A stretch of 64,000 nucleotides of DNA from Amphiscolops sp. MND2022 (taxonomy: Eukaryota), in contig OZ076412.1 of assembly GCA_964187785.1 (NCBI GenBank), forward strand, positions 12,462,001 through 12,526,000, read 5' to 3'. Position 1 is the stretch's first letter. Each line of letters opens with the position of its first letter. The position numbers and the translations under genes were made by a program. Shown in pieces: positions 2,775 through 61,183 of the stretch. Under the pieces are notes generated by a model. The model was not told the origin of the DNA, ran no database searches, and was given only the letters and a program-made list of their open reading frames with translations.

Positions 2775-3201
2775 TGTGACGTCATGATGCATGACATCAA
2801 GAATCTTAAATTTGTAAAAGTATAAATAAACTTCGTGACTTAATAGCATTACAGATGTCACTCTACTCAGAAGTTAAAACCTCATTATCGAGATGCTGAT
2901 TTTTCATTATAAATGTAATCTCTTGTACTTCATCCTATAATTATTTGAAGTCTATTTAATCTCATTATTGATTGATGTACTAACTAAATCTATATATTCA
3001 GAGTAACTCGAATGTTGTAATCAACCAGTACTCTCATCTTCGAAGAGAAAGAATTCTGAGATCTCAGTCTGAATAGTCCTACTCAGTTCATTGAAATAAG
3101 TATAGCTAGCTAGACGGTATTCTGTTAAGCCTTAGTAAGAACTTCTTATGTATTCACTAGATGAAATAAAGTCAAACATCCAACAAGTCTTTAACAGCTC
3201 A
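2775..3201 (+). repeat. 5' LTR of element B
   Basis: Starts TGTGACGTCATG and ends AACAGCTCA; matches 20041-20467 with 8 substitutions in 427 nt by eye (~98%). AATAAA lies near the 3' end. Confidence 0.97.
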
Positions 3202-3203
3202 AT

Positions 3204-3216
3204 TGGTGCGACCACG
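3204..3216 (+). promoter_or_regulatory. Putative primer-binding site of element B
   Basis: TGGTGCGACCACG begins 3 nt after the LTR end (TGG = complement of tRNA CCA). The primer tRNA was not identified. Confidence 0.7.
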
Positions 3217-3359
3217 AAAATTCTCCTTTCTCTTCCTCTAGTACCTCAACTTCTTTCATCTTGTACACAATTTCTCATTTTTTTCATCCGCTATTTCTTC
3301 GTTCGACACACTGTTTCACCTCCTCTTTCTATTGTATATCACTACTAAACACCCTTATG

Positions 3360-3575
3360 GTTCTGACTGCGTATTTTCGTAATTCCTCTCAGTTGAAATT
3401 CTATTGTTCTGACTACGTACTATCGTAATTCCTGTCAGTCGCATTCTTTGGTTCTGACTACGTTCTACCGTAATTCCTGTCAGTTATACGTTTCCGTTCC
3501 AACCACCATAGAGTGAATTCGTGTTGGTTTTTCTTTTTCGTTCCAACCGCAGACGTGCAATTCGTGTTGGGTTTT
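3360..3575 (+). repeat. Five ~45-nt leader repeats, each with an internal inverted repeat
   Basis: Three units GTTCTGACT..CGTAATTCCT(G/C)TCAG start at 3360, 3406 and 3451. Two units CGTTCCAACC..AATTCGTGTTGG start at 3495 and 3539. Confidence 0.85.
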
Positions 3576-3784
3576 CAATCAATGCTATCCAGCGATTCCT
3601 GCTGGTAAAATACCTCGGTTCTAGCTGCTCGGATCAACTTGCATAAAAGTTGGCACACAGATATAACATTTTCCCTTCTTTTCAACTTTTTCACCCTTCT
3701 TCTTAAACAATTTTTTCTCTATCATCTCTCTATATGACTACATACTTTTCCTTTTCTTAAGTACTGCCGCGGATCGATCAATCC

Positions 3785-3850
3785 TACACATTTCATCTTT
3801 AAATTTATCACTTATAATACACATTTCATCTTTAAATTTATCACTTATAA
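3785..3850 (+). repeat. Exact 33-bp tandem duplication
   Basis: TACACATTTCATCTTTAAATTTATCACTTATAA occurs twice in tandem. Confidence 0.95.
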
Positions 3851-3956
3851 TACAGAATTATGGTACAACATCTATTAGACATCTAAAACAACCAAAATAC
3901 AATACAAAAATTCCTTTGACACAATTTTTTAATATAGTACATAATCTCCTTTGTTA

Positions 3957-4076
3957 ATGCCTTCAGCTGATAATCTAGTACGTTTCTTAATTCTCCTCTG
4001 GTTCTCTCTTGGTATACTTGCTGGTATTGCACTTTTCTTTGACAGATTTCTAGTCCCTTTCATACCAAGATTCTAA
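3957..4076 (+). CDS. Small hydrophobic leader ORF (39 aa) in element B
   Basis: Hand translation MPSADNLVRFLILLWFSLGILAGIALFFDRFLVPFIPRF*, with one TM-like stretch. Below the ORF-track length cutoff. Confidence 0.35.
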   Translation: MPSADNLVRFLILLWFSLGILAGIALFFDRFLVPFIPRF

Positions 4077-4154
4077 TATTCTAAATTAACATTTTTCACT
4101 AGATAAAACTAACAATAATAATTTAAATAACTCCTATTTCACTCTTATTTTCTT

Positions 4155-4391
4155 ATGATACACGCTATAATACTTCCTATTTTTGGCCTACTTGGAATAT
4201 TTTACACAATCTGTACTCTACTTTCACTTACGTCTAACAAATTTTTACTCATACTTCTAACTATTATTACTTTTTTTTTACAAATCACATTCATAGATAT
4301 AATACTTCCATATCCTATCAATTTCACTACAAAACACAATTTCACCCAATATTTATTTCCTTTAGTGAACAATTTCTACTATGATTCATAA
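4155..4391 (+). CDS. Small hydrophobic leader ORF (78 aa) in element B
   Basis: ATG start, two TM-like stretches; ends 13 nt before the gag ATG. Confidence 0.4.
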   Translation: MIHAIILPIFGLLGIFYTICTLLSLTSNKFLLILLTIITFFLQITFIDIILPYPINFTTKHNFTQYLFPLVNNFYYDS

Positions 4392-4403
4392 TAAAATTAC
4401 ATA

Positions 4404-7400
4404 ATGCTTCCTAACCCATTTATATTATCTCTACAACAAAGGTCTATTCGTTCAACAACCCATGATGTAACACCCTTTTTACACAACCTAATTTTTCAAT
4501 ACACAAATCCACTTTTATTTGAAACTGAAGCACATTCAATCCATACAAAAACATTACTTCGAGAACACTTAGATGCATACCTTTATTACTTCAGATACAA
4601 AACATTGGAAATCACACCATCACAACAACCCTTTCAAGTCATTCTAGTGGAAAATTCTTCAGAACTAATCATCCTCAAAATTTAACTTTATCTATTCAAG
4701 ATATTTTTACGAGTTACATAAACAAACTTATTGAACACAACAAAAACTTAGGTACACCATTATACAGACCGTCCCTTCTTGACAGTTTAAAAGAAAAAGC
4801 AAACTATGTTGATGTACCAGACTTAGATACAAAAGTCATACGCCACAACAATCCTCATTATTGGCTTCAACAAGACCTTCTACAAGTCACAAATTTTCAA
4901 TACAAATTCTTTCAGAACATTTCATTAGATGACGATACAATACCACAAATCAAAGTCTTCTCTCACTTTCTCCTAAAATTCTTTCCATTTAATTAACAAA
5001 TATTATGGGAACAAAAAGATCAAAATGCATATATCCATTTTCCTCAAGTACTCACTGAAACTGAACTTTAACCACTTCTCATTCGAAATGATTTCAAACA
5101 TCCTTACTATAGAGATTTCACAACGATCCACACATCTCACCTTGACTCTATAGAACTTAATCCTGATTTCCTTCGAGAACAATCTGAAACCTCAGATAAC
5201 CGACCTTATACAAATCTACTTCAAAATAATACAAATGAAGACGAAAACATACTATCTGAAACTTCTGATACTGGACCATATATAACTTTAACACAATATA
5301 ACACTACTGATAATGAAAATGTAATCCAACATCAACCAACAACTCCACGACACCCATCCCAAATAACACACGATTCAACAGACTCAGTACAAGACACATT
5401 TACAAACCCACCAAATACTTCTAGTACAATTACAGACTCTAATGCTCTTCAAGTACCTACCCGAAACATCATAGAACATAATAACCATCTTTTCAACCAA
5501 GAAAACCCTTTTACATTATCTGTAACAAACACTAGTGAAACACAAACACCTTCAATACACCATACATTACAACGAAAATATGATCCACCACCTCCTCCAT
5601 CTAATAATTCTACTCATAGTTCCCCTCATAATTCACCTCAACAAGGATCTTCCAACACATTTTCTACTAGACAACCACCTTTAAATGAAACTCAGTTCCA
5701 AACAACAACTCCATCAATACAATCTCTTCAAACAAAACCATACCTTCCTGCTCAAACACCTGTACAACCCACTACTCATTCCATACTAAGTATTAATACT
5801 TTAGACACTAACCCCATAACTAATGTTACAACTTCTCGTACCTTATCACGACCTCCTATACCACTCATTCAAAATAACCCACTTTCGTACAACCTTACTA
5901 GTACCAATACACAATCACAATTCAGTTCCAATAATACACAATCTAATTTAAATATACAACCCATTTCTACTCACTTTCAGACTCATGTTCCTACTACTAG
6001 AACAGAAACACTTCAACCCGTACAAACAATTCCAATTCAACCTCAAATCAAGGTCCTAAATCCTTCCACATCCTCTAACCCATCTACTACTCACACTATA
6101 CCTCCAACTACAATACTTCTGTCTACCTTAAATACACCAACATACATTAACTCTGCTACTTCAATCTCGAAACCCATTAAACTTTTTTATGGTTTAGACC
6201 ATAATTATACACCAGACGAATACTTACAACATATTGAGGCTCGTGTTACATTTTCGCTAGGATTACAACCTCCTACTGCTCATGAGTACAAATTTTGGCA
6301 TGCACGCCGAATGGCTTTTATACAATGCTCACTAACTGGAACTGCTCTTAGTTGATACATTCGTTTAAATGTTTTTGTACAAGTTTTCAAAAAGCAATTT
6401 TCATCACAGGAAAACGCCTATTACGCACAAGTTGAAGCTCTTAGTTAAATAAAAAAGGACAATGAGACTGTTCGTCATTTTGCACTTAGAGTTCAACAAC
6501 TTGTTGAAAAAGGCTGGTGCAATGAGAACGCATCAACTATCAACCTCAAATTTAACGAGATATTTACAAAAGGACTTCCAAAAAACCTTAAGGACTTCGC
6601 AAACAAAAGACAAGTTAAACATACTTCTACTATTTTAGAACCTTCGATACCCTTTCATACACTTGTAAAACTTGTCGATGCTGAAGACATTGCAAATGTT
6701 AAGATACGTACACATGATCTTACCCTCGAAGTCAATAATATTACAAAACAATTACAAACTCAGTCATTACACTCACAACAATCTGACCAAGTAATGTTTA
6801 CACAACCACGAGATCCAAATAACAAAACAAAACCCGCTTACAAAAAGTACTGCTCCTATTGCCATCGAACAAATCATTTTATCTCTGCTTGTTTCAAAAA
6901 ACAACGAGATGATGAAGATAAACGCGATACTTATGCAAGATCAAAATCCCCTCAAACATCTTTTGTACAATATTTCCGTTCCTCCTCCAATGATAAAACA
7001 CAAAGATAAGATACAAGACCAATTGAATACCCCACACGATACCGTAGTCGGAGTACATCCCGTCATGACTACCAAAGACATAATCGACAACGATCTACTT
7101 CAAGAACTCGCTATAATTACGATCGAACTACCACTCCTCCACATTACACTCGATCTCGTTATAACAACTATCACCGAGATTCTCGTTCATATCGTTCACC
7201 ATATAGATCCTCCTACAAATCACCTCATAGACGTGATTCACGTTCCCGTTACAAATCTCGATCATACTCAAGAGATAACAACTTTCCACGATACACTTTT
7301 TCTTATAGACCACCGTCTCGACCTAGAGATTCTCGATATTCTACATCTCGCTCCCATTCTCAGACACGAAACAAAATCAATAACATTCAACCACAAGCTT

Positions 7401-7429
7401 CTACTGACCCAATCAACTTTGAAATACAC
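4404..7429 (+). pseudogene. gag: gag of element B (~1000 codons; one frameshift near 4682 and several stops)
   Basis: One frame runs from 4682 with few stops; most is ATG-less and so missed by the track. It holds a long S/T/P/Q-rich region, a capsid-like segment (FIQCSLTGTALS*YIRL), the zinc knuckle CSYCHRTNHFISAC (6851-6892) and an RS-rich tract (7037-7370). Confidence 0.85.
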
Positions 7430-10400
7430 ATGTACCACCCAACAGAAACGGCAAATGCATTAACTCCTACAAGCTGGTTTTACTCTTTATACACACATAC
7501 ATCCTCAAATCAAAACCATCGTGACTACCCTTCAAGACTTGAAATTTCCTTCCTTCTTGATAGTGGCGCTTCAATTTCTGTATTAAACCATCCTACTTGT
7601 ATTACTATAGCAAAACTTCTTAATATTGAATAAAATCCTCCTCATAATTCATCTAAAACACTCACCGTTGCTAATCAAACAGAAGTTCCTATTTTACACT
7701 ACATCACTATAACTTTAAATACAACCATAGAAGACAATTCACGTCAGTTCACAATACCGTTCGCAGTAGCTGATATTGAATACAACATCCTTGGTACACC
7801 CTTCTTTGAGGAAAATATTCAAAATATAAATATACAAGACTTTACTTTACAATTTAAACAACACTTAAGAGTATATCCCAATTATGCTAAATTTACTTCT
7901 TTACTATCCAAAGATTATCCATATTTCTCTTATATCTATAGAATCAACTCCAAAACACAAATTCGTTTAAAACCAAATTCTTCCAAAATTGCACACTTTC
8001 CTATTAACAACTATTATAACCTCCATTTCTCAACAACACCACAAAAACAATTTTTCCCCACAATTCCACATACTTATTTTTCATCCAAGTTTCGTACAAC
8101 TTTCAACTTCATTGAAATCTTTACAGATGACAAACCAGACACTTGTGCCACAATCATCCAAAACTCTACAAATCACATTGCAACACTACCTACTGGACAC
8201 ATTGGTTATATTGAAGTTCCAATAACTAAAGAAAAACCCAAATATTACCAAGTCAATGACTTAAACACACTTATACACAATGTTACTCATACATAGACCC
8301 CAGAAATTACAGAACTTATCCCACCAACAAACTACTCAACAACTACAGCACAACAAACAAGATTTCCAACACAATTTTTACTAAATCAAGTCTATATGAC
8401 CGACACCAATTCATTACCACACTCACCATCTATAAATAACGTTCAACCTACTTCTCATTCTTCACAACAGAGAGTGTTCCCTTCATTACCATACTCACCA
8501 GAAAACCTCAAGTTCATACATAAATTCAACTTCCAATTCTCTGACCTCACTGATACAGAATGTATCACACTTTGTAATGTGTTACTTAAATATAAAACCT
8601 GTTATGCTACTCATAAAAATGATGTTGGCAAAATTGCAACTCCTTTCCGCATTCGACTTAAACCAAATGCTCAATTGCTTACACAACGTCCATCTAAAGT
8701 ACCAATCCACTACCGTGATGAACTCAATACTCTTCTCAAAGATTTAGAAAAACATAACATTATAAAACAAATTGGTTCTTCTCCTCACGATAAACCCGTT
8801 TATGGCACAACTTACTTAAACCCTCTTTTTATTATACCCAAAGGTGATTCCATTAAATGTGTACTACATGCACGTCACCTCAGCTCAAATACAAAACAAT
8901 CAGACGAATCTTGGCCTATTGAACCTCTTGCTCCACAACTCGCACGAGCAAATGAAAAATACAAATCAGCCATAGACCTCATCTACGCCTATGCGCATAC
9001 CCCTCTTGACGAAGAAACTATCAAACTTACAAGTTTCTCTTCTTGCGATAAACTCTTCGCTTTTAGACGAGGCTTTTGTGGTCTCAAACGCCTTCCAAAT
9101 TTTTTACTAAACAAATGTCATCATTCTTTAAAATACTTATTGAACAAGGTTTTGCTCTTGTATACATTGATGATATTTTACTCCTATCAAAATCTAAAGA
9201 ACACATGTTTCAACTTAATGAACAACTACAAATTGTTAGCACAAAAAATAACCTTAAACTTGCAACCGAAAAATCCTTTTTCATGCTCCTCAAAGTCAAG
9301 TTTTTGGGACATGAAATAGGTTATAATACTATCAAACCCATACATTCCAAAATTACAGCTATACACAAGATTGCTTCACCCACTGGAAAAGTCGCCCTTA
9401 TGAGTTTCATAGGTGCACTTAATTTTTACACCAAATTCATCGAAAACTTCATATTAATCTCAAACCATTTTACGATCTGTTACATAAAAATACCTCTTGG
9501 AAATGGACTGAAGACCATGAACGTTTATTTCAAACTTTGAAAACTTCTCTCACTTCCAATACGGGACTTACAATTCCTATTACAAAACATCCTTTCTTTA
9601 TAACTGTAGATGCTTCCCTTATTGGATTAGGCGCTGTCCTTTTTCAACTGAATGAACAAATCTAAATGAAAGTCATCTCTTACAACTCACGTATATTGAA
9701 CCCACAAGAACAAAAACTCTCTACTCTTGAACGCGAACTTCTTGGTATTGTACACGCCCTTCAAATCTACGAGTTCATCATTATAGGATCACCACATCCT
9801 ATCCAAGTTTTCACTGACCATAAACCTCTTTTACATTGTTTTACGAAAAAAGGCAACCTTAGTCCACGCTTTTTTAGAGCACAAATGCAACTCACCAAAT
9901 TTTCGAAACTTGAAATAATACATACTCCAGGAAAAATCCTTTCTGTTGCTGACTTACTCGGTCGATCTTTTACTAAAGAAGAATTACAAATCAATCAATT
10001 CAAACATAAACACCTTCCATTTCATATGGATTTCACAATATTACAAAACAACAAACTTAAACTCGTACATTACTTAATTAAACATGAAATAGTTCTACCA
10101 CATCAAAAACACGATTGTCATCCAATTCTTGCAGATTATGGTACAGACCAATTCTCATTACGTATTATTGACAGAGGTAATGATATTATAGTTAAACCTT
10201 TGAACTCATTTTCATTCAACGCTATCACCCCTTTTCAAACCAAATTTAAAGCTCCGGTCAAAAAACAAAGCAAATCCTTTCATCAACAATCTCTTCTTCT
10301 CAATGATACTGATGTTACCAGTGATGACGAAGATCATATCTACACTCAAATCCCAAAAGATAACTCTTCCTTTTCACCTGATGAAACCCTACATGAACAA

Positions 10401-12427
10401 GAAACCTTTTCTACAATAACCACACCAAAACCTACCATTAATCCAAAATCGTCATCCGAAATTACTTCTGCTATAGACGTACAAACTCATTCTACCTCTC
10501 TGACACACTCTTCACAAATAGTACCTTTTTACGACCCTTCTTTTTCCAAGTACAAATTGTATTTTCAAGTTTTCTTCCTCCCTGACGATGACTCATTGGA
10601 CCTTAAAACACTTCAAGTACAACAATCTCAAAACCCAGTTCTTCGAACTGTACATTCTTGGATATCTCGTAACAAAAAGCCTGAATTTCTCACTCCCCTT
10701 ATTACTGGCAATCTCTTTTTGCACGCATATTACAAACGATTTAAACAACTTTTCATCGATACTACTACTAACCTTGTAAGCCTTTATATAACAAATCCAC
10801 TTCCTCCTGAAACACACCCTATTTCAATTCTAAACCTACTACACAGTACTATCAGAATTTGTCTCCCTTTTCGAATGTTCCAAACTGTATTTAACAAATT
10901 ACATGACCATTCTCATACAGGTATCAAAATAACCTATAACACTTTTTCTCAATTTTATTACATTCCATATCTTGAAAAATGGCTCTCTATTTTCATACAT
11001 GATTGTCTTGAATGTCAAAAAAATAAACATTTTAATATTAAAAATCAAACTGCTCCTACACAATCGTTTTCAGAACACGCTCCGTTCTTCAATTAACGAA
11101 TCTCAATGGATACCAAAGGACCTATTAATCCTGCTTCACAACATAAATCATACATTCACGTCATCGTTGACGCTTTTAGTCACTTTGTTGTTACCGTTCC
11201 AATCAAATCGAACAATGCAAAAACTGCTACTAAAACTTTATTACATCATTGGATTACCAAATATGGCCCTCCCATTTACCTTGTCATGATCGTGGCTCAG
11301 AATATGTTAATAAAGGTATGGCCCCATCTTTGTACACTTATGGGTATTAGACACTATCCACGAACTTCATATTCTCCTTGGACAAATGGCCTTGTTGAAG
11401 TACAAAATCGAAATGTTGGCACACACCTTCGTATGTTTCTTCATAACAACCCTGACGATTGGGCTTTTCAAGTCCACATGTATGCTTACGCACACAATTC
11501 TCAACCAATTTTTGAACTCAATGTTTCTCCTTACGAAATAGTGTTTCACACAAGACCCAGAATCCCACTGACATTTGATCTTAACCTTAACCGTAACAGC
11601 TCCAAAGCTTGTATTTCACAATACTGTTCACAACTTCCAGAACACTCACACTATGACAAAACAGATTTAAATCCTTTCTTTTACAAAACTCTTTCAAAAC
11701 CCATTCCACAATGGCTTCTTGCTGTAGAAACTGCAATGTTACAAATTTATTCAACTGTATAATATTATACTCTCAAAAAATCAATTCTCAAGCATACATT
11801 ACTAAAACCTACCATGAAGGTAAACCACTTCCTATTGGCACCTTCGTCCTTAAACGCCATTTTGCACACGTTCATTTTTCAGACAAACCTAAACCGCTTC
11901 GAATTGGCCCATACAAAATTCTCGATCGAATATCCGATGTTACATATGAACTTCTCGCACAAGATGGTTCTACATTACATGTTCACAGAAACCACTTAAT
12001 CCCCTATTACCCAAAAGAACCACTCTTGTATCCTCACCCTCGTAATATCATGCGTTTCTCTAATTCAATTAATCTCGACGTTCCAAAACCCATTAAATAT
12101 GCCAATAGCGACTCATCACCTTTTAATTCCGATGAATCCCTTTCTGATGATACATCTTTTTCAGATAATGACCAAACCTTGTTACCAAATAACTTTTCTC
12201 CACAAACTTCATCAAATACTAATCCCCCTTTAAAAATTAACCCACCTTTTCAATCAATTCTTCAACCTCCTGGTACCAATCAGTCTCGTGCCAGAACTCG
12301 TCACCCATCTCAAAACCAATCTCCATCACCTTCCACCACAAATAATAGAGATACCAAACCTCATTATAACTTAAGACAACAACCGAAAATGGATTATCGT
12401 ATTTTCATAGCAACATCCAAACAGTGA
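7430..12427 (+). pseudogene. pol: pol of element B: protease, RT, RNase H, integrase (frameshifted, with stops)
   Basis: LLDSGAS (7556); YIDDILL (9163); VDASLIGLGAVLFQ, ERELLGIVHAL and FTDHKPL (RNase H); HDHSHTG..CLEC, MDTKGP, NGLVEVQN and RIGPYKIL (integrase). Same frame as gag up to ~9100. Confidence 0.95.
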
Positions 12428-13749
12428 AACATTCATTCACTCTATAGTCACTGCTCCAACTAGTCACATAAAATCTGAAAGTAACGTCTAACCAAACTGG
12501 ACTACCAACCTGGATTCTTCATATGAAACACCTCCCTCTGCTCCTCATATACCTTCTCCATCTGAATCCTCAGTTTCAAACACCACTACAACTAGTAATG
12601 TAACTCCTGTAACTCCTTCAAAACGACCAAGATCTCAGATTATAACTACTTCACCAACACCACTTTCTCATACAACATCTACCCATATTAGTAGACCACC
12701 CTTTGCTGAAATACCGTATAATCCTCGCTCTCGATCTCAACCATCATTTGTTCATATACCACACCCTCATACAGTAGCACATCTTGTAAATTACAAACAA
12801 CCAACTGCTATTAAAACTGCCCGTGTTTCACCAAACCTTCCATCTAATTTGGATATTGTACCAATACCTGATATTGAATATACACCTCTACCTACATTAC
12901 ACTTGCCATCTGAATCTTCTAGTCTATCTCAAATTTACCCGCCTTTAAAACCACTTAGACATCCTTCTACCTCTCTTTCTAACTTGATAGACTCGGCTTC
13001 AGAATAATAAACCACAAACAGATACCTCTGGTTCTGAAATTATACCTCAACACAGATACAACCTTAGACCTCTTCCAAATAGACGTCTAAGTGCAACTGA
13101 TTCATCAACTCTTAATTTTTCAGCACTTTCTAGCAATTATGCGTTACGTCTCCTTAGACAACACGCTCAACCTCTTTCTTCTGATACAGCACACTCTTCA
13201 GACTTTGTTCCACAATCCTACCTTACTTCTGGACTAGACACAGCTTCCCTACTCTCTTCTCCAAACTGCATATTTATCTTGCAAGCTTTTCTCTGAAGTC
13301 TTAGTACCTACACCTGTTGCTCCTCACGTACGAATACCTGAATATTATACTTTTGACCAATCAAGACCACCCACTCCTAATTTTGCAGATTACCCTATAC
13401 GTGTAGACGGAATCAGTATATACGATCCTCAAAACGATCCTCGTTTTCCTATTCTTGCAGAACGTTCATTACCACAAATAACTGTCTTTCAAATAAACGA
13501 AAAGAAACTGAACTTAAACGTCTTCAAACTCCTAATCTAGAATTAAAATTCGAAGTCAAAGTTAAGTTCCAAGGTCTTAATTCTCATCCTATATTTCACG
13601 TCGCAAAGATTGAACACAAAACAACTCCTGCTCCATTTGAAGTAATATTGGTCGATTTCAACCGTGATCTTGAATTACACGATTTAGCTTATGGCAAAAT
13701 TGTTTTCTATAATCCTTTCTCTGGTCTCAATTATACAACTTCCTTTTAA
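12423..13749 (+). pseudogene. ORF-X: S/T/P-rich region with globular C-terminal part, between integrase and env (separate ORF or Pol extension)
   Basis: Hand translation gives long ATG-less open stretches (e.g. SSYETPPSAPHIPSPSESS..., RYNLRPLPNRR) joined by ~3 frameshifts. Ends LKFEVKVKFQGLNSHPIFHVAKIEHK...NYTTSF* at 13749, overlapping the env start. Confidence 0.6.
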
Positions 13750-16487
13750 TACACACATTATACTCTTCATAACTCACTTACTTCTCTTTTCCATAAATTC
13801 TTATTTTACTTCCTCTATTCCTATTAACCCAATTGATGATGACAAATATCTCCTATCTGATGATCCAAATACAACAAATCTTATGGTCTCTCATTATGAT
13901 TGTGAAAAACAACATAACCTTTGCCAATTTAACCTTCTTAATGTTAAACAATGTACCGAAGCTCCTTTTAACATACAACACGCAAATATCCAAGCCCGAG
14001 TCTACGTTAGAGCAAAAGCTAAACGCATTCGCGCTTTCAAATGCGAAGCATATTCTAAAAAAGAACGCAAAGTTTGCTTCCAAGATAATTTTAAATATAG
14101 ACGTGTTGACAGAACTGTTTGGAATCATAATACAATGCCACTTCCTATTACACTTGATCCCCTTGAATGTAAAAATCTTATTAGACACCTTAATGGAACT
14201 GATAACAAAATATTAAACAACCTTAACTATAACAAAACTTTTACACTTCTAGAAGACCACTACTTTCAAGAACAATTAGAACGATTTCAAACCCCTTTCA
14301 CTGTTTATCAATTCAACAAAATGTATACAGATACCTTTACCTATATGCCTGCTGACAAAACATGGATATATGACCCATTTCGAAACCCTCATCATAACTG
14401 TCCAGCTCATCATCAATTTGAAGTCAACTTAGTTAGTTGGCGTCTTGCTATTTCTGAAATCGAACTTACATATGTTGATACACAAAACGTTATGATCATA
14501 TATGGTCGTACTCTCCCATGTTACTTTGCTGATGGTTTTTGTAAACCTACTACGAAAACTCCTTTCACACTTGTATGGTTTAGTGACGACTTTTGTCTTA
14601 TTTTTACATTACAAGACTTTATTGGACGCATGACTAAAATAGAACACCGTTATTGGATAGAAACAGATTCTTTTGTACATTCTGCAACTCCAAAAAAATT
14701 TTCCTCTTTTGATGGTATCAAGGGTACTTCTTATCTTTATATCCGTGCTCCTCATACTGAAACTCCACATAGCCCAAGCGTTTCTCGTTTTGAAGTCTTT
14801 CCTAATGCACATACCTTTTGCGGAAAACCTGCACCTCTATATTCCACTCAATATTCTGACCTTTTTGTTACTTATACTGAAGGATTCAACATGCATACAG
14901 GACAACCAAATCCCACTTCTATAATGAATGAATATATTTCTGGTAAAATTGTATTGAACAACTCTATTAACAAATACATTTTTCCTGCATTGAACGTTTC
15001 TAACAACTTCGCTACAATAGATTATGATGGTCATATAAATACTAAAATTGACTACACCATTAATCATGTATTTCGCTCTATGACTGTCCAAGAACTTAAT
15101 ACTCTTCATACAGTATGTGAATTAGAACGAAACCAACTCCTTACAATACTTGCAATGTCAGTACAAAATCCTCAACTTGCTGGCTTCCTTTTAACAGGAA
15201 ATCGCAGTAACTTTCTCTATGTTGAAGGATCTACTGCTCGGCTATATGACTGCCCACATTTTCCTTCTCCATTACACATTGCCGATCGTTGTTTCGATCG
15301 AATTCCTATTCGTTTTAAAGACACCCTTATGTACGTTGATCCTTTTACAAGACAAACCTATGACTATGCTACTCCTATTACATGTGATATTAACCCAAAC
15401 AATATTATTGAACTTGATCCTGATTCTGGTGACCAAGACTTCTATATTCTTGGCCCTGAACCTATTAAACGAAAACCTCCACTTATGTGTACTCCTTCCC
15501 AAAATAAAACTACAATACGACCTAATACTTTTACAGCTCAACATGCTGGTATATACTCTTATGCAGAACTAAATCAATTTTGGAACAGAATCTTATTTTC
15601 TAAACACTCTGAAACTACTCTTCAACTTTTAGGAAAATCTCTTTGTTATTCCTTTATTTCTTCTAATACACCTGATTATGATGCAGATTCTCCACATGGT
15701 AACCCATATAATACACTTCGAATTGGACTTCATGATCGATTAATTAACTTTACTCCTCTTTTTACTCCTACATGGTTCTCCGATGCCTTTATTGCTTTAT
15801 TTGGATACCAATGTTACATTTTGACACAATGTGGACTTTGTTCTTTTTCTACAAACAATATTAACTCTCATTGTTAAATTATACAAAACAAATTCCATAA
15901 AGTACAACCTTGAACAAAATATTACAACCCTTAACTCTATTGCACATGGTTTTCTCAATATTCTTACAGCTGACATGATACATGACCTAAAAAATGTTCG
16001 TTCTAAATCATCCTCTAAAAGTTCACATCAAATGTCAAACATTACTGACAACCCGTTAGATGAATCTTCCTATAATCCTAATGATACAACTGGTATTTCT
16101 TCAAATCCAACTGGTATTACTTCACCACCACCTTTTTATACAAAACGACCGAATGGGATCCAAAATGACTCGTTTAAATTCCTTCCAAAACGAAAGCAAT
16201 ATTCCAATCAAACACCTCATAATGTTCACTCCAAATCTAATACTCAATCATCCTTACCACATTATTCTCCTGTCACCACAAATCCTAATGATTACACTTT
16301 AACTACATCACCTGTCGATTGTGAGTTGGACACTCCTGTCCGCAAATATTCAAAAACTAATCACTCCTTTCCTCCGCCATCTTTTAACACTGATCACTCT
16401 GACTTTTTCACTCTCCAACATAGCTGGCCACTCTTCTATCCAACTTCATCGCTCTCAACTCTCTCCTCACAAAAACTTCTCTCTTAG
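13691..16487 (+). pseudogene. env: env-like glycoprotein resembling chuvirus (jingchuviral) G / herpesvirus gB class III fusion proteins; frameshift near 15835 before the TM anchor
   Basis: 728-aa ORF with a signal-peptide-like N-terminus and the Cys pattern HYDC..NLLNVKQC, LECK, LPCYFADGFC, FCGK..LYSTQY, CELERNQLL..LAMSVQNP, CFDRIPI..YVDPFTR..ITC, matching my recollection of chuviral G. The TM/cytoplasmic part continues in ORF 15831-16487. Confidence 0.8.
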
Positions 16488-16672
16488 CAAAATTTCAATC
16501 AATCCTCTAAATATCTCTCTCTCTGAAAAACTTTACATATTTCAACAATTGAATCGAAAATCGAAATTAACCTAAATAATCGTGTCAACATTTCCACTCC
16601 AAAAACTTCTGATAAAGCCAAACGTTAGTGTTTTCTTTTCATATTGTACTCTCCAAAAATCTCTTCAATAAT

Positions 16673-18139
16673 ATGACCCAAGCCCAACTAGATTTTCACA
16701 ACATGACTTCTCAAGTAACTCAAGAACAAATTGATCTTCAAAATCAACTTGCAATGCACACTGCTGATCTTATTACTAAACCTCTTTCTAATGACTCTCC
16801 TGTTCTCTTTCTTGATACTAAAGAAACATCTGATGATCCCATTCCTGATCAAATGTAACACCAAAATATTCTTCCAAAAAATAAAACACCTCCGGATCAT
16901 GATCAATCTCCTGGTACTCGTCCACCTACAAAAAAGAAATATGAAATCATGAAAGATCCTGCATTTCTTTCATCACCAATCTATCCACCAATATACCTAC
17001 AAAACCACAACCCTCTACGACCCGTGATGACTATCTTGTACCAATACTTTCTACAAACCGCTACTCCTTCAAATCACAACTGACTTCTCTATATATGCAT
17101 CCTACTGACTACACCTTTAAAATGTATGATAAAAATCAAGATTTCTTCACGTCCATTGCTTCTAAAATTATGGCACCCTATCAAAATTGGCTTGAAAATG
17201 GAATCAAAATACTTTCTCTCCAATTCAATTTTCTTCGCCCATCGATCTACGATCTAAAAACGAATGAAAACTATCCATCTTTTCTATCTACCTACAGCAC
17301 AAAAGGCTACTCATCATTTAACATATACTCGCTTTCTTCAACACTCAAAACCTCAAAACTACATATTTGCAAACTATAAAAACACTTCTCCTTTCACCAT
17401 GACAAACTTGTACACTATTGATCACTCCAAAATAACCGGCTACCTTCGAAACCATGACCCAATCAAACAATATTTTTGTTTGCTTCCTCATAATGATACA
17501 TCTCGTCCTCTCATTGTACCTCAAGGGTACCTTATTCATTTTGATGACTTCCTGTTGCCCTGCAACATTCCCACTCAGATTGCCAAACCTTTGACAGTCA
17601 TCGAACATGTTGTTTCTCCACCATTAGACGACAAAGATACCTCACATTATACCGCTCTCAATAAACAATCCTATTCTTACAATGAACTTTTGTTCATAGC
17701 CGCGAAAGTCATCTCATACATGGTTCAAGCTGAACAACAACTCCCAGTTCAAAATGAACAACGTTCTTATAACGATCATAAATCTCCTACGAAATCTCAC
17801 ATCAAACAAACTACCAGTGAAAAACTTGCGACTATATTAAATAATCGTACTCTTAAGGATCTCACCCAAATGCTAGATCCATATAAACGCAATCCGTCCG
17901 ATTCTCCAATTACCACTCTTAATCATCTCATACATTGCCATAACAGGACTTCGCAACTCCTTCAAACTCTAGATCTCGATTCTCAGCTCATAACGCAATC
18001 CTCTCAAGCAATCCAATCTGCGCTTGAATTTATGAATACTTTTTTTACTCCTAATATCCACTTAATCATCTCTCAGGTAATACAAATTTCTTTAATTTTC
18101 CTCCGATATTGGACATTTTTGGACATCTTTCTCTGTTGA
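16673..18139 (+). pseudogene. ORF-Y: unknown accessory protein (~490 codons) of element B
   Basis: Track fragments 16628-16858, 17095-17379 and 17264-18139 join into one protein with 1 stop and ~2 frameshifts. No family recognised. Confidence 0.55.
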
Positions 18140-18463
18140 ACATTTTCATTCCAAGCTACAGGTAACATCCCTAATTTATTTTTCATGCATTTTTGCCTAC
18201 ATTTGTAGCACAAAAACTCATTCATCTATTGTACTCTTCTTCTCTTCTAGCACTTTTTCAGAATCTCTTTTCAACTATAATACAAAAACAACCTCCATAT
18301 TATAGCACCAAATTATGTAGCAAAAACTTTTGGCATTTGGTCTTCAAATCTCAGAATCCTTTTGTTTTAGAAACTTCTATTCTTCTTCCTCCTTCTGGAC
18401 TCCTTTCAGTCTCTGCCAATTCCAGAAAATTCTATCAAGACTTCACTTTTCATTCTTCATCCA

Positions 18464-18862
18464 ATGGCTCCGCAAAAGTCTGAAATAAAACAACTCGTTA
18501 CTTCAACTGAATCTAAAGTCCATAGCCTAAAAGCTGCCATTTTTAATACTATGGCTTACAAAATGTCTCTGAAAATAAATAAAGGAAACGTCACTCTCCC
18601 TACTCGTCGTTCCCTTCTTAAGGTTCTCTACAATATCTGCCAGATCAAGAAAAAGCAGATCACCTTTGAACAGTATTATCGAGTTCATGTTAATGGACCA
18701 AAAATCGCCATTTGTGAAATTACTTCTGACACTGTGTTCGTCCTCAACTCCGCGTTTACTACGAAGGACAACTATTTTCAAGTAGCATGGGATGACGCTA
18801 TTGACGCCTTCAATGCCGTACTCTTAGACTTTGGGTACACAATTGCAACGCTACAATCCTGA
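18464..18862 (+). CDS. ORF-Z: intact 132-aa accessory ORF of element B
   Basis: ATG in good context (CCAATGG), globular-protein-like composition, no disruptions. No family recognised. Confidence 0.6.
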   Translation: MAPQKSEIKQLVTSTESKVHSLKAAIFNTMAYKMSLKINKGNVTLPTRRSLLKVLYNICQIKKKQITFEQYYRVHVNGPKIAICEITSDTVFVLNSAFTTKDNYFQVAWDDAIDAFNAVLLDFGYTIATLQS

Positions 18863-19013
18863 GACCCAACAAGTCCACCCTCCGTCAAAACACCCATTTT
18901 GGCCAAAAAATTACACTTCTGATAATTCCAACTAACCTATTCTCTTCACTTCTCATCACTCTGATGCTGTTGCTTTCTTCTTCCATGGCTTCATAGATGT
19001 CATCATTGTCAAC

Positions 19014-19202
19014 ATGCATCTCTCACTTCCTGCTTCTCAACCTCTCCACATCGCCACTTTTTCTCTTGTGTCGCTGCTACTCTTCTTCGCTGTCTCTCCA
19101 GACATCGTCACTTCGTGGTCCTCTCTGCTTCTTCGTCAGATGACTACACCACTTCACCTTACTTCAAACTTCAAACTCTTCCGAAACTTCATCACTGTAT
19201 AA
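19014..19202 (+). CDS. Small hydrophobic ORF (62 aa) near the 3' end of element B
   Basis: ATG start; hydrophobic stretch IATFSLVSLLLFFAV. Confidence 0.3.
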   Translation: MHLSLPASQPLHIATFSLVSLLLFFAVSPDIVTSWSSLLLRQMTTPLHLTSNFKLFRNFITV

Positions 19203-20040
19203 TCTTAATCAATAATCTTATTTTATCACTGTCTAATCTCAATCTATAATCTCAAAACTACTTATATTCAAAATATCCCCTGTTAATACTCTATTAACCA
19301 AATGTAAGCAATGTATACTCTATAATAATTCTTATTATTTTAGTCAAAATTAACCTACGATACCTAATTTAGTGCTTAATTCATCAAAACCCTATATTCG
19401 TTGTTGCTATATAATCATCTAATACCAACACTTTTTGCAAAATACGAAAATTCACCATATATTACATATTATTTTACTGGATATGTTTTTGTCCTTCTTC
19501 CTCTTTCAAAGTACAAGACCTATTCTTATAGAACAAATGTTTTACTTTAGGAATTTGAACTGAAAATTTGAAGTTTGAATCTTTTTTCAATCATCCAATC
19601 TTTCTTTTCTTTCGAATGAAAAATGAACTCAAACTTTGCCACTTCTAGACTTCTTCACACTTTGTTCACAACCCGCCAATGTTTGTTCATACCTCATTGA
19701 CAACTTCAAAAATTGTTCTTCAACGCCAAAAGTTTTCATTTGAATGCTCACTTGAAGAACACTCACATATTTTTTTAAACAAAGCCGATGGAGCATATCA
19801 AATGAACCATAACAGAGGTTGTCAATCAATAACTCGAATTCCAAATGTCAAAATCTAATATTGACAGAATGTTGCACCAATGTGAACCGTCATATGACTA
19901 AGAAGTTCTAACCGTCCTAGGTTGTTCTCACTCCTTGAGTATGGTACTAGAATATAACATGAAACATTGAACACCTTTAGTACAAAACCCAAACCTTCAA
20001 AACATATGGATATATTTTAATTTTTCAAAACCCGGTCGAT

Positions 20041-20467
20041 TGTGACGTCATGATGCATGACATCAAGAATCTTAAATTTGTTAAAGTATAAATAGACTTC
20101 GTGACTTAATAGCATGACAGATGTCACTCTACTCAGAAGTTAATACCTCATTATCGAGATGCTGATATTTCATTATAAATGTAATCTCTTGTACTTCAGC
20201 CTATAATTATTTGAAGTCTATTTAATCTCATTATTGATGGATGTACTAACTAAATCTATATATTCAGAGTAACTTGAATGTTGTAATCAACCAGTACTCT
20301 CATCTTCGAAGAGAAAGAATTCTGAGATCTCAGTCTGAATAGTCCTACTCAGTTCATTGAAATAAGTATAGCTAGCTAGACGGTATTCTGTTAAGCCTTA
20401 GTAAGAACTTCTTATGTATTCACTAGATGAAATAAAGTCAAACATCCAACAAGTCTTTAACAGCTCA
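20041..20467 (+). repeat. 3' LTR of element B
   Basis: Copy of 2775-3201, followed by TSD CATA. Confidence 0.97.
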
Positions 20468-20959
20468 CATAATCATGGTATCCTTGGCAAGATCTTGGTA
20501 AGATCATGGTAAGATCTTGGCAAGACTAGCTAGCGATTTATCATGGTTCTTGGCAAACGTATCATATCCTCGATCGCTGGGTAGTTAGGCGGCCTAACAG
20601 GTTGTTTTTTCTGTAATTTACCGGATATTTGAAACACAGCTTTCATCGATACTCAACAACGAAAAAATACCTCCGTCGTGTCATGTTCATAATGAAGTGA
20701 GTTAAATTGAACCAGATGAACCTAAATGGACTATATTAAATAATTTATTCTGGAAAATAGTCTAGTGAACAAAAAATATCATCATTTTTAACCATGGGTG
20801 TAGCTTTTGACTACGTTAACATAGCTATTATTTAAAGGTTACCTTAAGTTCATATGATTCTCTAGGAATCATCATATGGTTCCACTAGTGTGCATGCCGT
20901 AAGAGCTCGAGAGATTGGAAATAAAAAATGCTGCCAATCTTCAAAAACATGTAAAGCGT

Positions 20960-26768: not shown

Positions 26769-27658
26769 CCCAGGTTTTCAATCTTTGCGAATCTGTAAAG
26801 ATCTGCAGGATTTTTTCTGCAGGGTTCTGCAAAGATCGTTGCACTGAATCTTGAAGATCCATACAGATCTGCAAGATCTTTACAGAAGTGTGCAGATCTG
26901 CAAGATCTTTACAGAAGTGTGCAGATTTTTTTAAAGATTTCTGCAGAAATATATTTTTCTGCAGCTTCTAAGGAACCAATATACTGATTTTTGGACTTCT
27001 TCAACTACTTCATCGAGCATTTTAGCTGACCTAAGGTCAGTCAGTTGAAACTCTCCATCACTCAAAAGTCTTGAGAAGGAAAATTTGTCCCCATCACGAA
27101 AACTTTTGTGACGTGAGAAAATGCAGTTTTGGTAAAACACGGTAATTTATCCATTTCACTCGAACTTTCCAGAAGTGATTGTTGAATTTTAAGAGGCTCG
27201 TTTGTCATATTGACTTCGTTTTGGCCGGTAATATTTGACATGTGGCAACCATCTGGGTTGGTCGATGTGTTGATGAAAAGTATTTTTTGTAATATTTCCG
27301 CAACATAGTTTGTTGGAGTTTTTTTAGTAATTGCTGTTAACTTGGAATACGTTATAGTAATTGTTTGGCTCTGTAAAAATCTGTAAAGATCTGCAAAACT
27401 CTACAGATCTGTACAGATTGCTGCAGAAAAATGTTTCATCATTTTGCCATAAATGAGACTTCTCTCCAGTTTTAAACACTTTTAATATTAGTTTGACATC
27501 TCTGTGGGGTTTTTATTGTATTTCTGAGTACGTCAGTTTTTTTCGAATCTGCACATATCTGCAAAGATCTGCAAAAATTCTGCAGATCTGCACATATCTG
27601 CAAAGATCTGCAAAAATCCTGCAGATCTGCACAGATTCGCAAAGATCGAAAACCTGGG
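26769..27658. mobile_element. MITE with CCC...GGG termini and GCAGATCTGC-type subterminal repeats
   Basis: ~46-bp TIR CCCAGGTTTTC(A/G)ATCTTTGCGAATCTGT..AGATCTGCAGGATTTT; 2-bp TSD TC. This fits CMC/EnSpm-like non-autonomous elements (inference). Confidence 0.85.
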
Positions 27659-28631: not shown

Positions 28632-29092
28632 TTAGTCGGCGTTTTCCAAGAAAATGCACCACTCTTACAGTGGCTAGTTTTTTTCGTCAGTTCAACGCGA
28701 TCGGTCCACTTTGAACTACGGACGTCCAAAAAATGCTCGAAACGCCAGAACCTCGTCCAAAACAAAAACATCGACGTCCAGAACCTCGAAAACATAGGAT
28801 CCCCCCTTTGGTGTTTTTCACGCGGATTTTTTCGCCACTATGCGACTTTTTTTGAACTTTTTTGGATTTCACCAAAGGGTCTCCCCTTCGTTTGTTTCGA
28901 TATTTTGCAACACAATGGATGTCAAAAATTCCCAAAGGGTCCCTCTTTTTACATTTTTTGGCACTGTGACTCTGTTCAAAGGTCTCATTTTCAATTTTTT
29001 TTCCGGAAATTTTTTAAAATCTCCCAAGGGTCCCCTCTTTTACAATTTTGAGCCTTAGATATAGCACTGATTTTGGCCGTTCCCGGCTTGTT
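28632..29092 (-). mobile_element. Helentron/HINE-like non-autonomous repeat
   Basis: AACAAG.CGGGAAC 5' end and CGCCGACTAA 3' end (reverse orientation); same family as 60760-61169. Confidence 0.55.
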
Positions 29093-30670: not shown

Positions 30671-33560
30671 TCCGCATTGTGAAGACAGCACTGGGAGTAC
30701 AAATGGACAGTTCTGCCCTTGCTGCGTGCCACCCATTGGAGAGGATAGATGGTGCAGGACAACCTCAGGCAATCATAGCTAAGTTTCTCTATTTTGATTT
30801 CAAAAATAGGATTTGGGGAAGAAAAAACTATTGAGTTGTTACCGAAACCAGTTGAATGGGCGCCCAGTTTTTCTCGATGAAAAACTAACGAAGGGCCGAT
30901 AAAGACTTATGGATTATGCTCGAGAAAAAGGTGGAAAAACTCAAAAATTCAATAGCCAACCGCAAGTTCTTGTGCAAACAGCGAATGGTTTTAGGGCGCA
31001 GACAATCACGAGTAAAGACGCTGTTGACGAGTTACTGGAAGAAAGCAAAATCCTTTTTACCAGAACAAACGCCGAAAAACCAACATCTTCGTTCAATACA
31101 AGAATGGAAATGAAAAGCCATTCCGGCAAGCACCTTTCCAAATTAGAAGCCCTAATAATGATGTCGATATATTCAAACAACTGGAATCATTCAGAGGCGA
31201 CAATGACAAAATGCTGGACTATGTTAAAGGTCTTCTGGACAAATTGCCTGCGAATAAACTCTTGCATCAAGACGGTGACTGAAATGATTTACAAATCCTG
31301 CAGCGACTACACTCAAACTTTTGACAAATCTGTTAAATCTATCATGTGTCAAACTTCGACATTGTTTGCTGAGAACCCGGATAGTGTTGGAACAGAAAAT
31401 GATTTTTCTGTTTAGATTATCATTTTGAAAACTTTTTGGTATTACTAGAAACTTTGGATATAAACCTGATATAATGGCAATTACAGAAACTTGGATGACA
31501 GAAAATGACCCTTCAGAAGAATTTCAAATTAATGGATACCAGCCCATTGTTTCGAATCCACGTGAAAAATTAAACGGCGATCAGGCACAGTTGCATTTTA
31601 TATCAAAGAAGGAATAGACTATGAGCCAAAAAAACTTCCATTGATATTGAGTGCCAGCTAATCAGAGTGAAATATGACCACGATGTCGCCAAAGTTTTTC
31701 GTGTAATCTATCGTCTTGATACGTTCATGCTGACAAAATGTTTACAAAAATTTTACTAATTACCTTACAGAAAGTTTTATATTCGGTGACTTCAATATAA
31801 ACACATTAATCACGGATAATAACAAAGTCAATTATGAAAATACTCTCAATTCATGTTATTGCAAAATAAAGAATTGTCTACCAACTATAGTTACACCAAC
31901 AACGAAAAGTTGTTTAGATCACTGGATTGCGGGTGATGAGATGTGCACGCAAACGATTGAAACAACTATAATTGATCATTTCACTGTTGCGGCATCAATT
32001 TTCTTCTCGTAAATCATACAAAAAAGACCTGGAAAAGAAAAAGGTCAAAAAATGAAGAACTTGAAAGGCGAAAATGCATTGAAATTGTTCTTGCCACTCG
32101 ATCAAAAGCTTAAAGCAATTCAATCAACACCATGCACTGAAAAAGCTTGAAACAATTCAACCAGCACCATGCACTGAAATGCGGTCCCAGATGATGTGCG
32201 AAAAAATGATTGAATGTATCAATATGTTTGCACAGGAAAAAGAAGTTGTTTTTAAAAATGAAACGAACTCGTGGATTACCAACGAAATCAAAAACGCAAT
32301 GGTCAAACGAGATTGCCTCTTCCGAAAATGAGTTGAAATTCCAAACTCCAAAAATCATATCGAATATAAATCAACGTAATGTAGTAACCCAAAAAATACG
32401 ACGTGCAAAAAAGGAAGCTATTTTCAAAAAACTAGGTCCTAAGCCAAGTCCAAAGCATATTTATCGGACTTTAAAATCAAAAACCTTCAACATTTGCGAC
32501 CGCATTGTACTGTTTTGCCTGATCTTGACCATTTAAATAACTACTTTGTGTCTGTTGGTCAAATTCATCCAAGTAACCTATAATAGAGAACAATGCTAAA
32601 ATCGCCAACAAAACAGAAACCATGTTCGTGTATCCCACTGATGAGTTCGAAGTTTCGAATATACTTGAAAACATGAAGAATAAGAAAAGTACTGGTGAAG
32701 ATCGGATGAATAATGAGATGTCAAAGTGTTGCTCTCTCATAATTGAACCTCATGTTGCAACATTGTTCAACAACTGTTTTGGTGAAGGGAGTTTTCCCAT
32801 TGCTTCAAAACAGCTAAAGTAATACCATTATATAAAAAAGGTGATCGCAAAGACGCTGGAAAATATAAACCAATCAGCCTTTTAAGTTCATTGAGCAAAG
32901 TTTTCAAAAAACTGTTGTACAAAAGAATGATGAAGATTGGGGGTCAAATAACCTTCTACATGGAGCCCAGTTTGGGTTTAGATCTAAAATGTCTTGCGTT
33001 CATGGAATTACCACTGTTACTGAATACATAAGAGCAGCTATAGAAATGAAGCAGTTAGGTCAATCTTGTTTTATTGATTTGCAAAAATCTTTAGATACAC
33101 TCAATCATGAAATACTTTTTCATAAAATGGAAAAATACGATCTCAGAGGGAAAATCTTGAGCCTTATTGCCAGTTTTTTAAAAGACAGGCGTCAATTTGT
33201 ATATCATAATGGGAGAACAACATGAAAACGACTGACTAGTACGGGTGTCCCACATGAATCTCTGTTAGGTCCATTTCTTTTTCTTTTATACATAAATGAT
33301 CTACCGACTGTCATTAATGAAAGTCAAGTAACCATGTTTGCTGATGATACAAGTCTCTTGAAAGGTGGGAAGAAAGGCGAACATTTATTACAACCAGGTG
33401 TTGAAAGAATATCAAACTGTTTTATTAGTAACAAATTAACCATCAATGTCGGGAAATGTGAAGTTTTTCATTATGCATTGGAGTTCCACAAGAGCCTCAA
33501 ATTTTGGAGATACCTTTGACTTACAAAAAGTCATGCAAATACATAGGGCTGCATCTAGCA
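30571..33560 (+). mobile_element. Decayed, truncated CR1/L2-group LINE (ORF1 remnant, APE, RT)
   Basis: ORF1 remnant LAACHPL..IIAKF resembles 58962-59972. APE motifs AITETW and GDFNIN. RT motifs FIDLQKSLDTLNH, GVPHESLLGPFLF and FADDT. Many frameshifts. Confidence 0.9.
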
Positions 33561-33700
33561 GTGTCCCCCTTTCAATTTATTTGATATTTTGCAACAAACT
33601 GGATTCTCAAAAAACCCGAAGGGTCCCGCTTTTACAGGTTTAAAAACTGCGCTTTCTGAGCCTCAGATATAGCGCCGAGTTTAGATGTTCCCGTCTTGTT
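33561..33700 (-). repeat. 5' fragment of the HINE-like family, truncating the LINE
   Basis: Ends GATGTTCCCGTCTTGTT, the reverse complement of AACAAGACGGGAACATC. Similar fragments start at 37229 and 37876. Confidence 0.55.
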
Positions 33701-41362: not shown

Positions 41363-41625
41363 AGCTACGTGATCCCCAATGCAACCAGACTACCAGTGCG
41401 CGCAAACAATCACAGACTAACTATTACTACGACTCAATGACTCAGACGTCAGAATGTCGGCAGCTTTCTGACAACCGGACTCAACTGTCTAAGAAATACT
41501 ACGTACACAAAGTTTCCACTAACAACTACCACATACTCCCACCAGTCGGTGATGACCCCACGTGTACATTTAAGGAGTGTACTGCAAGAGAGTCAACAAC
41601 CCACAAAACGCTCACCTAGACGAAA

Positions 41626-52666: not shown

Positions 52667-52677
52667 AAGAGGCGGAG
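52667..52677 (+). promoter_or_regulatory. Polypurine tract of element C
   Basis: AAGAGGCGGAG lies immediately before the 3' LTR. Confidence 0.75.
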
Positions 52678-61169: not shown

Positions 61170-61183
61170 TAGGTCATTATCAC

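Follow-up and report, generated by a model that had tools for sequence, protein, structure and literature searches.

A decayed gB-envelope Ty3/Gypsy copy in Amphiscolops sp. MND2022 from an abundant family with three extra genes, the first a probably CUG-initiated predicted nucleosome binder

The window analysed here is a 64,000-nucleotide stretch of the genome of Amphiscolops sp. MND2022 (contig OZ076412.1, positions 12,462,001 to 12,526,000), in which positions 2775-20467 are occupied by a 17.7-kb Ty3/Gypsy element bounded by long terminal repeats (LTRs). Besides gag-pol, the element carries an open reading frame (ORF) that lacks methionine codons, here named ORF-X, an envelope gene (env) of the herpesvirus gB and chuvirus type, and two frames downstream of env, ORF4 and ORF5. 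The locus is probably to be understood as a decayed copy from a high-copy gB-envelope Gypsy family with three extra genes, the first of which would be started at a CUG codon and would encode a predicted nucleosome binder. The new part is ORF-X and the accessory gene set, and not the envelope, to which a preliminary description of this DNA had drawn attention.

Organization of the element

All features of the element lie on the plus strand of the window, which is strongly G-poor along the element (10% G). The LTRs (2775-3201 and 20041-20467) are each 427 bp long with TG...CA ends, show 8 mismatches between the 5′ and 3′ copies (98.1% identity), and are flanked by a 4-bp target-site duplication, CATA (2771-2774 and 20468-20471). 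The anatomy of the element was seen in 10 sister copies, and five further families were compared; families are referred to below as A to F. The elements are 17.7-18.8 kb long, and the 4-bp duplication is exact in eight of the nine sister copies having both LTRs. Three 45-bp tandem repeats (3352-3484) lie within a 1.2-kb leader.

The gag-pol region (4404-12427) encodes Gag, protease, reverse transcriptase (RT) and RNase H, together with integrase; it is broken in the window copy and forms one frame in unbroken sisters. Pfam domains follow the Gypsy set and order (Retrotrans_gag, RVT_1, RT_RNaseH, Integrase_H2C2, rve and SH3_Tf2-1), and the protease motif was identified by eye. The RT carries YIDD, and RT, RNase H, integrase and the GPY-type C-terminus are all Ty3/Gypsy-like, as the preliminary description had read the RT and GPY/F motifs. 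The best PDB matches of the RT are Ty3 RT (E value 4e-36; 7q5b is named Ty3-G, and 4ol8 we take to be Ty3), with retroviral RTs at 1e-19 or weaker; this closeness is a similarity among PDB matches that include no BEL/Pao RT, and is not a tree. The Pfam scan at E <= 0.5 returned none of the Gag, protease and RNase H domains that we take to mark BEL/Pao elements. The element is assigned with near certainty to Ty3/Gypsy of the published gB-envelope (‘ancient errantivirus’) kind. Within Gag (4404-6200), an N-terminal domain of about 290 residues is conserved (ratio of nonsynonymous to synonymous substitution rates, dN/dS, 0.155) and matches no family; a long low-complexity linker follows, and then a capsid domain at about residue 650. 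A frame of 202-222 amino acids in another phase (6795-7463), open in families A, B and D, overlaps the Arg/Ser-rich part of gag; it may merely reflect composition, or it may be one more overlapping gene.

Sister copies carry ORF4 and ORF5 after env. In the window these occupy 16673-18139 (about 470 amino acids in sisters, broken here) and 18464-18862 (about 160 amino acids). No Pfam family matched ORF-X, ORF4 or ORF5, and families C and D have no recognisable ORF5. For ORF4 there was no usable Atlas match, the AlphaFold model had a mean predicted local distance difference test (pLDDT) of 37.5, and the best 120 of 277 homologues were all at least 58% identical. By eye, the ORFs after env in the metagenome contig L054 (9651-12092, with two paralogues), L056 and L057 share a short beta-rich motif. 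The idea, also by eye, that ORF4 shares an SH3/Tudor-like barrel with these downstream ORFs was dropped, as profiles of ORF4, ORF5 and ORF-X gave no match to L054, L056 or L057 under E 0.3.

Comparison between families shows purifying selection on gag-pol, ORF-X, env, ORF4 and ORF5. For the pair A and B, whose synonymous sites approach saturation, the dN/dS values are 0.085 (pol), 0.12 (env), 0.15 (ORF4) and 0.16 (ORF-X; 0.09 over its last 150 codons); for ORF5, the nonsynonymous and synonymous differences per site (pN and pS) are 0.25 and 0.83.

The envelope and its possible role

The env ORF of the window copy (13691-15877, 728 amino acids) scores against PF24664, Monjiviricetes_fusion, with E 2e-22 (79 bits against a cut-off of 27). 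The signal-like N-terminus, conserved cysteines and sequence blocks reported in the preliminary description are all present there. The ectodomain has 14 cysteines, each kept in at least 36 of 37-42 aligned relatives, and the window copy retains all 14 and has gained three more. A hydrophobic stretch lies near the N-terminus (about residues 18-36). In sister copies env is a single frame of 909-912 amino acids, with one helix at 18-36 and another at 709-746 (hydropathy peak 1.56), as for an N-terminal signal or transmembrane segment and a C-terminal transmembrane anchor.

An unbroken sister env was modelled with AlphaFold from a 42-row alignment (mean pLDDT 65.5; predicted template modelling score, pTM, 0.45). 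In Foldseek the best solved-structure match of the model is herpesvirus gB (herpes simplex virus 1 gB, E 3e-12), and its best predicted viral matches are glycoproteins of chu-like viruses (E 4.5e-29, 14% identity). As modelled, the match is one of fold family and not of close superposition (template modelling scores, TM-scores, of 0.2-0.3). Sequence searches of the PDB, with the single sequence and with a profile, gave no matches, so the fold assignment rests on Pfam and Foldseek. The check by AlphaFold and Foldseek that the preliminary description had called for thus led to gB and chu-like glycoproteins, in agreement with its class III identification: the env is a class III, chuvirus-G/gB-like fusogen, carried by a Ty3/Gypsy rather than a BEL/Pao element.

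By analogy with Drosophila gypsy, Env would make particles that move between host cells, a suggestion put forward tentatively and with slightly less than even expectation. It is rather unlikely that Env instead serves another role, such as cell-cell fusion or intracellular budding, with the elements spreading as ordinary germline retrotransposons. No furin site was found in env, which fits such a role, and Chary and Hayashi warn, in the text available, that elements of this kind need not follow the gypsy life cycle (PMC13524379). Against it stand the strong purifying selection on env, the retention of all structural cysteines across families, and the Tor Env, described in the available part of its report as a membrane glycoprotein expressed in soma adjoining germ cells (PMC4402516).

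The methionine-free ORF-X and its start codon

ORF-X lies between pol and env (12510-13749, with three frameshifts in the window copy). It comprises 413-488 codons and contains no methionine in four of four families, which are 33-69% identical to one another. Its first part is long and rich in Ser, Pro and Thr; the C-terminal domain behind it, about 130 residues in length, is conserved and gave no usable Atlas match. Similarity begins at a CTG-coded leucine (12510-12512 in the window) that has A at -3 and G at +4 in all four families, the triplet before it being AAT, ACC, ATC and ATA. The A-N-N-CTG-G context is kept in 22 of 24 full copies (one is changed and one was unmatched by the filter), and the CTG in 18 of 19 aligned close sisters of the window copy. 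CTG is rare elsewhere (2 of 233 Leu codons in gag-pol), and of the 44 Leu columns invariant across the four families the start column alone is CTG in all.

From the CTG to the env AUG the four families have 3, 2, 1 and 2 out-of-frame ATGs against codon-shuffle means of 7.6, 5.1, 7.4 and 7.3 (P 0.031, 0.085, 0.003 and 0.013, respectively); the control frames, namely gag-pol, env, ORF4 and the Ser/Thr/Pro-rich part of gag, show an ATG excess. In families C and D the env ATG comes 1-2 nt after the stop of ORF-X; in family A env overlaps the last 20 ORF-X codons. In the latter family a stop separates the ORF-X frame from pol and there is no overlap between them. Expression of ORF-X by frameshifting or read-through from pol was ruled out by the lack of overlap, the intervening stop and the variable spacing.

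Because a CTG in optimal context is conserved and AUGs are depleted down to the env start, CUG initiation on a messenger shared by ORF-X and env is favoured. ORF-X probably starts at the CUG, and, with somewhat less assurance, env would be translated by leaky scanning or stop-start reinitiation; the sequence evidence points to one shared messenger as the simplest reading. Under this scheme an internal promoter, such as that of Tor3b/4b, would give rise to a subgenomic RNA beginning close to where pol ends, and GT-AG splicing would not be used. A minority of scanning ribosomes would initiate ORF-X at the CUG, and the remaining ribosomes would reach the env AUG 1.2-1.4 kb downstream.

Alternatively, ORF-X might be the second exon of a spliced or trans-spliced messenger with an upstream AUG, the conserved CTGGAT then being a promoter or RNA signal. 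Splicing does occur in accessory genes of Gypsy elements, as in CERV of Cer1 (PMC10309623), and the env of Tor3a is spliced (PMC4402516), according to the portions of these reports at hand. Families A, B and the window copy furthermore have an AG|TCAC site 40-75 nt upstream of the CTG. In these same sequences, however, an in-frame stop separates that site from ORF-X; family C has no AG within 130 nt upstream of the CTG, and the leaders of A and C have no GT[AG]AG donor. Splicing would also leave unexplained the absence of internal methionines, the depletion of out-of-frame ATGs, the A at -3 and the G at +4. The exon model is considered improbable, and initiation at the CUG is preferred.

In family E a methionine-free frame of 200-227 amino acids stands directly after env (L116:4180-4779 and L126:4177-4857), and 3-4.6 kb of small sense and antisense ORFs separate pol and env.

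The YNLR motif of ORF-X

The sequence H-x-YNLR, which includes the motif at 13057-13068 in the window, is invariant in four of four families although it lies inside the variable part of ORF-X, and Y-x-L-R also ends Pol in families A, B, C and the window copy. The chromatin-binding peptide of foamy-virus Gag has a YNLR core, of which the Arg sits in the acidic patch of H2A-H2B and the Tyr on Gln44 of H2B, as given in the sections consulted of two reports (PMC12125541, PMC6042332).

A complex model of a 33-residue piece of ORF-X with host H2A/H2B scored 0.78, against 0.00 for the best of three controls; the mark set for this score is reached by 51 of 78 solved pairs and by 2 of 108 mismatched pairs. 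Contacts agreed between runs by at least 65%, with a partner pLDDT of at least 51. In the model the Arg touches H2A 65 and 96, which we take, as read from the host H2A sequence, to be the canonical Glu61 and Glu92, and the Tyr touches H2B 44. Since the foamy complex is already solved and peptides lie outside the calibration of the tool, the model shows a likeness to the foamy Gag peptide and not binding. Whether ORF-X tethers to chromatin through the YNLR arginine anchor, where it might act as a regulator or an integration tether, is an evenly balanced prediction.

Priming of reverse transcription

The primer-binding site (PBS; 3204-3214) is an 11-nt sequence invariant in families A-C, E and F; family D, in which the LTRs were not located, lies outside this comparison. 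A host tRNA-Met(CAT) gene has a 3′ end that, with CCA added, is complementary to it over 11 nt, and over 17 nt in families E and F. Four host loci were examined for this match, one of which is a full tRNA gene. Judged from this complementarity, it is very likely that elongator tRNA-Met primes reverse transcription. Priming by tRNA-Arg or tRNA-Leu was considered and dropped, as the Leu and Val matches are minority variants in tRNA arrays and tRNA-Met fits exactly. In L127, near position 1500, an LTR end of this family is joined without a gap to a 3′ fragment, in sense orientation, of the primer tRNA-Met; the junction may be an aberrant product of reverse transcription.

Metaviridae typically have a polypurine tract before the 3′ LTR. 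Here none was found, the longest purine run within the last 300 nt being 6, and the site is occupied in families A-C by a conserved non-purine motif with a CCCGGT core (20019-20040 in the window).

Family size, relatives and origin of the envelope

A 215-residue piece of env gave 7,602 first-look candidates in the 1.07-Gb genome, a figure that is not a copy number, and about 116 of the best 150 env matches (counted by eye) lie in open frames of at least 900 amino acids. Ten sister copies, all chosen for an open env, were fetched; nine have both LTRs, which are 98.3-100% identical, and gag-pol is uninterrupted in six (2,694-2,695 amino acids). The intact copies that the preliminary description had proposed to look for do exist, all five frames being uninterrupted in five of the ten. 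The family is young and abundant. As a side observation, the mitochondrial genetic code of the host is code 5, which sets it apart from cnidarians, ctenophores, sponges, tunicates, echinoderms and most flatworms.

Env identity to family A is about 79% for B, about 62% for D, 48-53% for C and 26% for the distant group E/F. The contig L054 has gag, pol and env in that order, with an env 30% identical, plus two further ORFs. Trees of RT (8 rows) and env (10 rows) both split A-D from E/F plus L054, with support of 100/100 in each. They were midpoint-rooted, carry a long-branch warning, and are built from families of the host genome and L054 with no viral sequences; the RT of C2 and the env of C, C2 and L058 were left out. 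The shared split fits long co-inheritance of env with pol, and is compatible with separate captures too.

The preliminary description had proposed an independent capture of env, for which nothing was found in support. That a Gypsy element of this lineage captured a chuvirus glycoprotein independently is very unlikely, even though the best structural matches are the chu-like virus glycoproteins and the env of this clade is just 26-35% identical to its nearest outside relatives. To those viral glycoproteins the env is 12-15% identical, a value much lower than for the envs of other LTR elements such as L054, and no relatives of this env were found among viral contigs. Both trees, with the limits given above, part A-D from E, F and L054, and the pairing of env with Gypsy is widespread in animals according to the part of the survey consulted (PMC13524379).

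Decay of the window copy

Over the 2,691 codons of gag-pol compared with an unbroken natural copy, the window copy carries 10 stops and 8 frameshifts. The region of env that encodes the membrane anchor and low-complexity cytoplasmic tail (15780-16487) is first broken by a short, frame-shifting deletion near 15842, inside the anchor-coding part, and more frameshifts follow in the tail; the frame at 15825-16487 is the shifted remainder of env. The window copy cannot make an anchored Env because these frameshifts hit anchor and tail. The preliminary description, which had placed the anchor after a single frameshift, was right about the frameshift, but this lies inside the anchor and is not the only one.

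Over about 715 codons the ectodomain is unbroken, which is mildly unusual given the 3-5 breaks to be expected at the rates of sister env or of the copy's own gag-pol. Among the changes private to it, 24 are nonsynonymous and 5 synonymous (pN/pS 1.31, P(neutral) 0.82), compared with a pN/pS of 1.26 in the pol of this copy, and an open env equally long or longer is found in 2 of 20 close sisters. The window copy is dead and its open ectodomain decays neutrally; it had been correctly observed that the ectodomain is open while gag-pol is broken, but the openness does not carry the meaning attached to it. That the host has kept the ectodomain as a secreted or restriction-type envelope is scarcely credible, although the unbroken codons and a truncation at the anchor that would yield a soluble product speak for it, as domestication of this copy is ruled out by the neutral private changes and the equally open sisters, to which the three extra cysteines acquired by the ectodomain may be added.

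Other features of the window

A second, older Gypsy element (38861-53959) has LTRs of about 1.28 kb that are 94.8% identical, a CTGCT duplication and a normal purine tract. About 7 kb between its integrase and 3′ LTR holds antisense ORF remnants, and this region gave no match to the present env profile or to Pfam. A nearly intact element resembling a long interspersed nuclear element lies at 56041-59981 (minus strand), with a coiled-coil ORF1 of 339 amino acids and endonuclease-like and RT-like frames split by one shift (domains assigned by eye). Nested inverted repeats resembling a miniature inverted-repeat transposable element, with arms of about 50 nt enclosing 800 bp, are found at 26769-27658, and a short repeat is dispersed in both orientations (28876-29092, 33560-33702, 37874-37930 and 60764-60902). 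Exon-like frames with weak tetratricopeptide repeat matches at 61163-62830 (minus strand) possibly belong to a host gene.

Comparison with known systems and implications

Chary and Hayashi (eLife 2026) surveyed 1,512 env-bearing Ty3/gypsy elements and, in the part of the article available, report that gB-type env matches F-type in abundance and breadth of distribution, and that the chuvirus-like glycoprotein found in BEL/Pao elements of mosquitoes likewise adjoins gypsy pol (PMC13524379). The combination of env and Gypsy, presented as novel in the preliminary description, had thus already been published, the very circumstance in which that description was prepared to withdraw its novelty claim (PMC13524379). 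With the HSV/gB-type ‘ancient errantiviruses’ of that survey, as described in the sections at hand, the present elements share Ty3/gypsy pol, the order gag-pol-env, a gB-like class III env with signal and anchor for which a furin site is not required, LTRs, a tRNA PBS and many near-identical copies. They differ in their length of 17.7-18.8 kb, in the single fused gag-pol frame, in the two genes after env, and in a coding spacer of 1.2-1.4 kb between pol and env, which is above the survey's 1,000-nt prefilter (PMC13524379). The main text of the survey, as far as available, makes no mention of accessory, splic, polypurine or non-AUG; the PBS string and acoel terms are absent from its table of 1,512 elements, and six acoelomorph/xenoturbellid terms from its genome list (PMC13524379). 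Because these entries are missing from the tables, this particular family is probably uncatalogued in the survey.

Among other systems, each compared through the accessible part of its report, the BEL/Pao elements with a chuvirus-like glycoprotein, such as Anakin (Dezordi et al., PMC7642597), have a glycoprotein of the same superfamily (PF24664), whereas pol here is Ty3/Gypsy. The Tor elements of Oikopleura are likewise env-bearing and of Gypsy type, with the env RNA of Tor3b/4b arising from an internal promoter near the end of pol (PMC4402516), but their env is F-type according to the survey (PMC13524379) and no ORF-X-like gene was seen in them (PMC4402516). Sobemovirus ORFx is also a conserved AUG-less ORF with a predicted CUG-like start, on the scanning path to the next gene and overlapping it; it is an unrelated protein of a plant RNA virus, and the analogy is one of mechanism only (PMC3791421). 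The foamy Gag chromatin-binding sequence shares the YNLR core with invariant Tyr and Arg, and the model contacts are as in its solved structure (PMC12125541, PMC6042332); unlike in foamy virus, YNLR here lies in a separate accessory frame (with a similar motif at the Pol C-terminus) and not in Gag, and the comparison covers the motif. Genes beyond gag, pol and env occur in Metaviridae in Cer1, with CERV (PMC10309623), and in bdelloids, with several ORF3 types (PMC5408684). CERV is spliced and the bdelloid ORF3s are recognisable enzymes (PMC10309623, PMC5408684), whereas the three frames described here match no Pfam family. In the literature searched, which omits most subscription papers and was partly seen as extracts, no CUG-initiated or YNLR-bearing accessory gene of a Gypsy element was found.

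Several points weigh against the description of the locus given at the outset. The messenger, the proteins and any particles are predictions from DNA sequence. The env model has a pTM of 0.45 and TM-scores to gB of just 0.2-0.3. With regard to the CUG start, one to three out-of-frame AUGs remain per family, one of them in fair context (family C); the ATG depletion does not reach significance in family B taken by itself (P 0.085), and, the four families being related, the tests are not fully independent. No strong hairpin was found after the CTG (-2.9 to -4.9 kcal/mol), position -3 of the env AUG is a pyrimidine in family A, and the transcription start of the RNA for ORF-X and env was not located. 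For the nucleosome contact, the complex score may reflect memory of the solved structure of the foamy Gag peptide with the nucleosome. Peptides, disordered chains and host-virus pairs lie outside the calibration of the tool, the controls were unrelated proteins and not basic peptides, and the four-residue YxLR pattern recurs elsewhere in these elements.

Tentatively, and with somewhat less than even expectation, the family may represent a complex invertebrate retrovirus lineage: a gB-enveloped Gypsy with three accessory genes, among them a CUG-initiated nucleosome-binding protein that shares the Env messenger and has a foamy-type acidic-patch anchor, with plus-strand synthesis that dispenses with a polypurine tract and an expansion to thousands of copies, in an animal group perhaps outside the survey. 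Complex vertebrate retroviruses are characterised by accessory proteins and non-AUG starts, features that, to our knowledge, have rarely been described in Metaviridae. While the pairing of env with Gypsy merely adds an example to the 2026 survey, an AUG-less gene escapes ordinary annotation and widens the gap between pol and env beyond the survey prefilter, and both effects may lead to an under-count of such elements. For comparative work on env function this genome is well suited, as it holds several families that coexist and are saturated at synonymous sites, and a foamy-type acidic-patch anchor in a Gypsy element, if true, would give a testable handle on how such elements reach chromatin.

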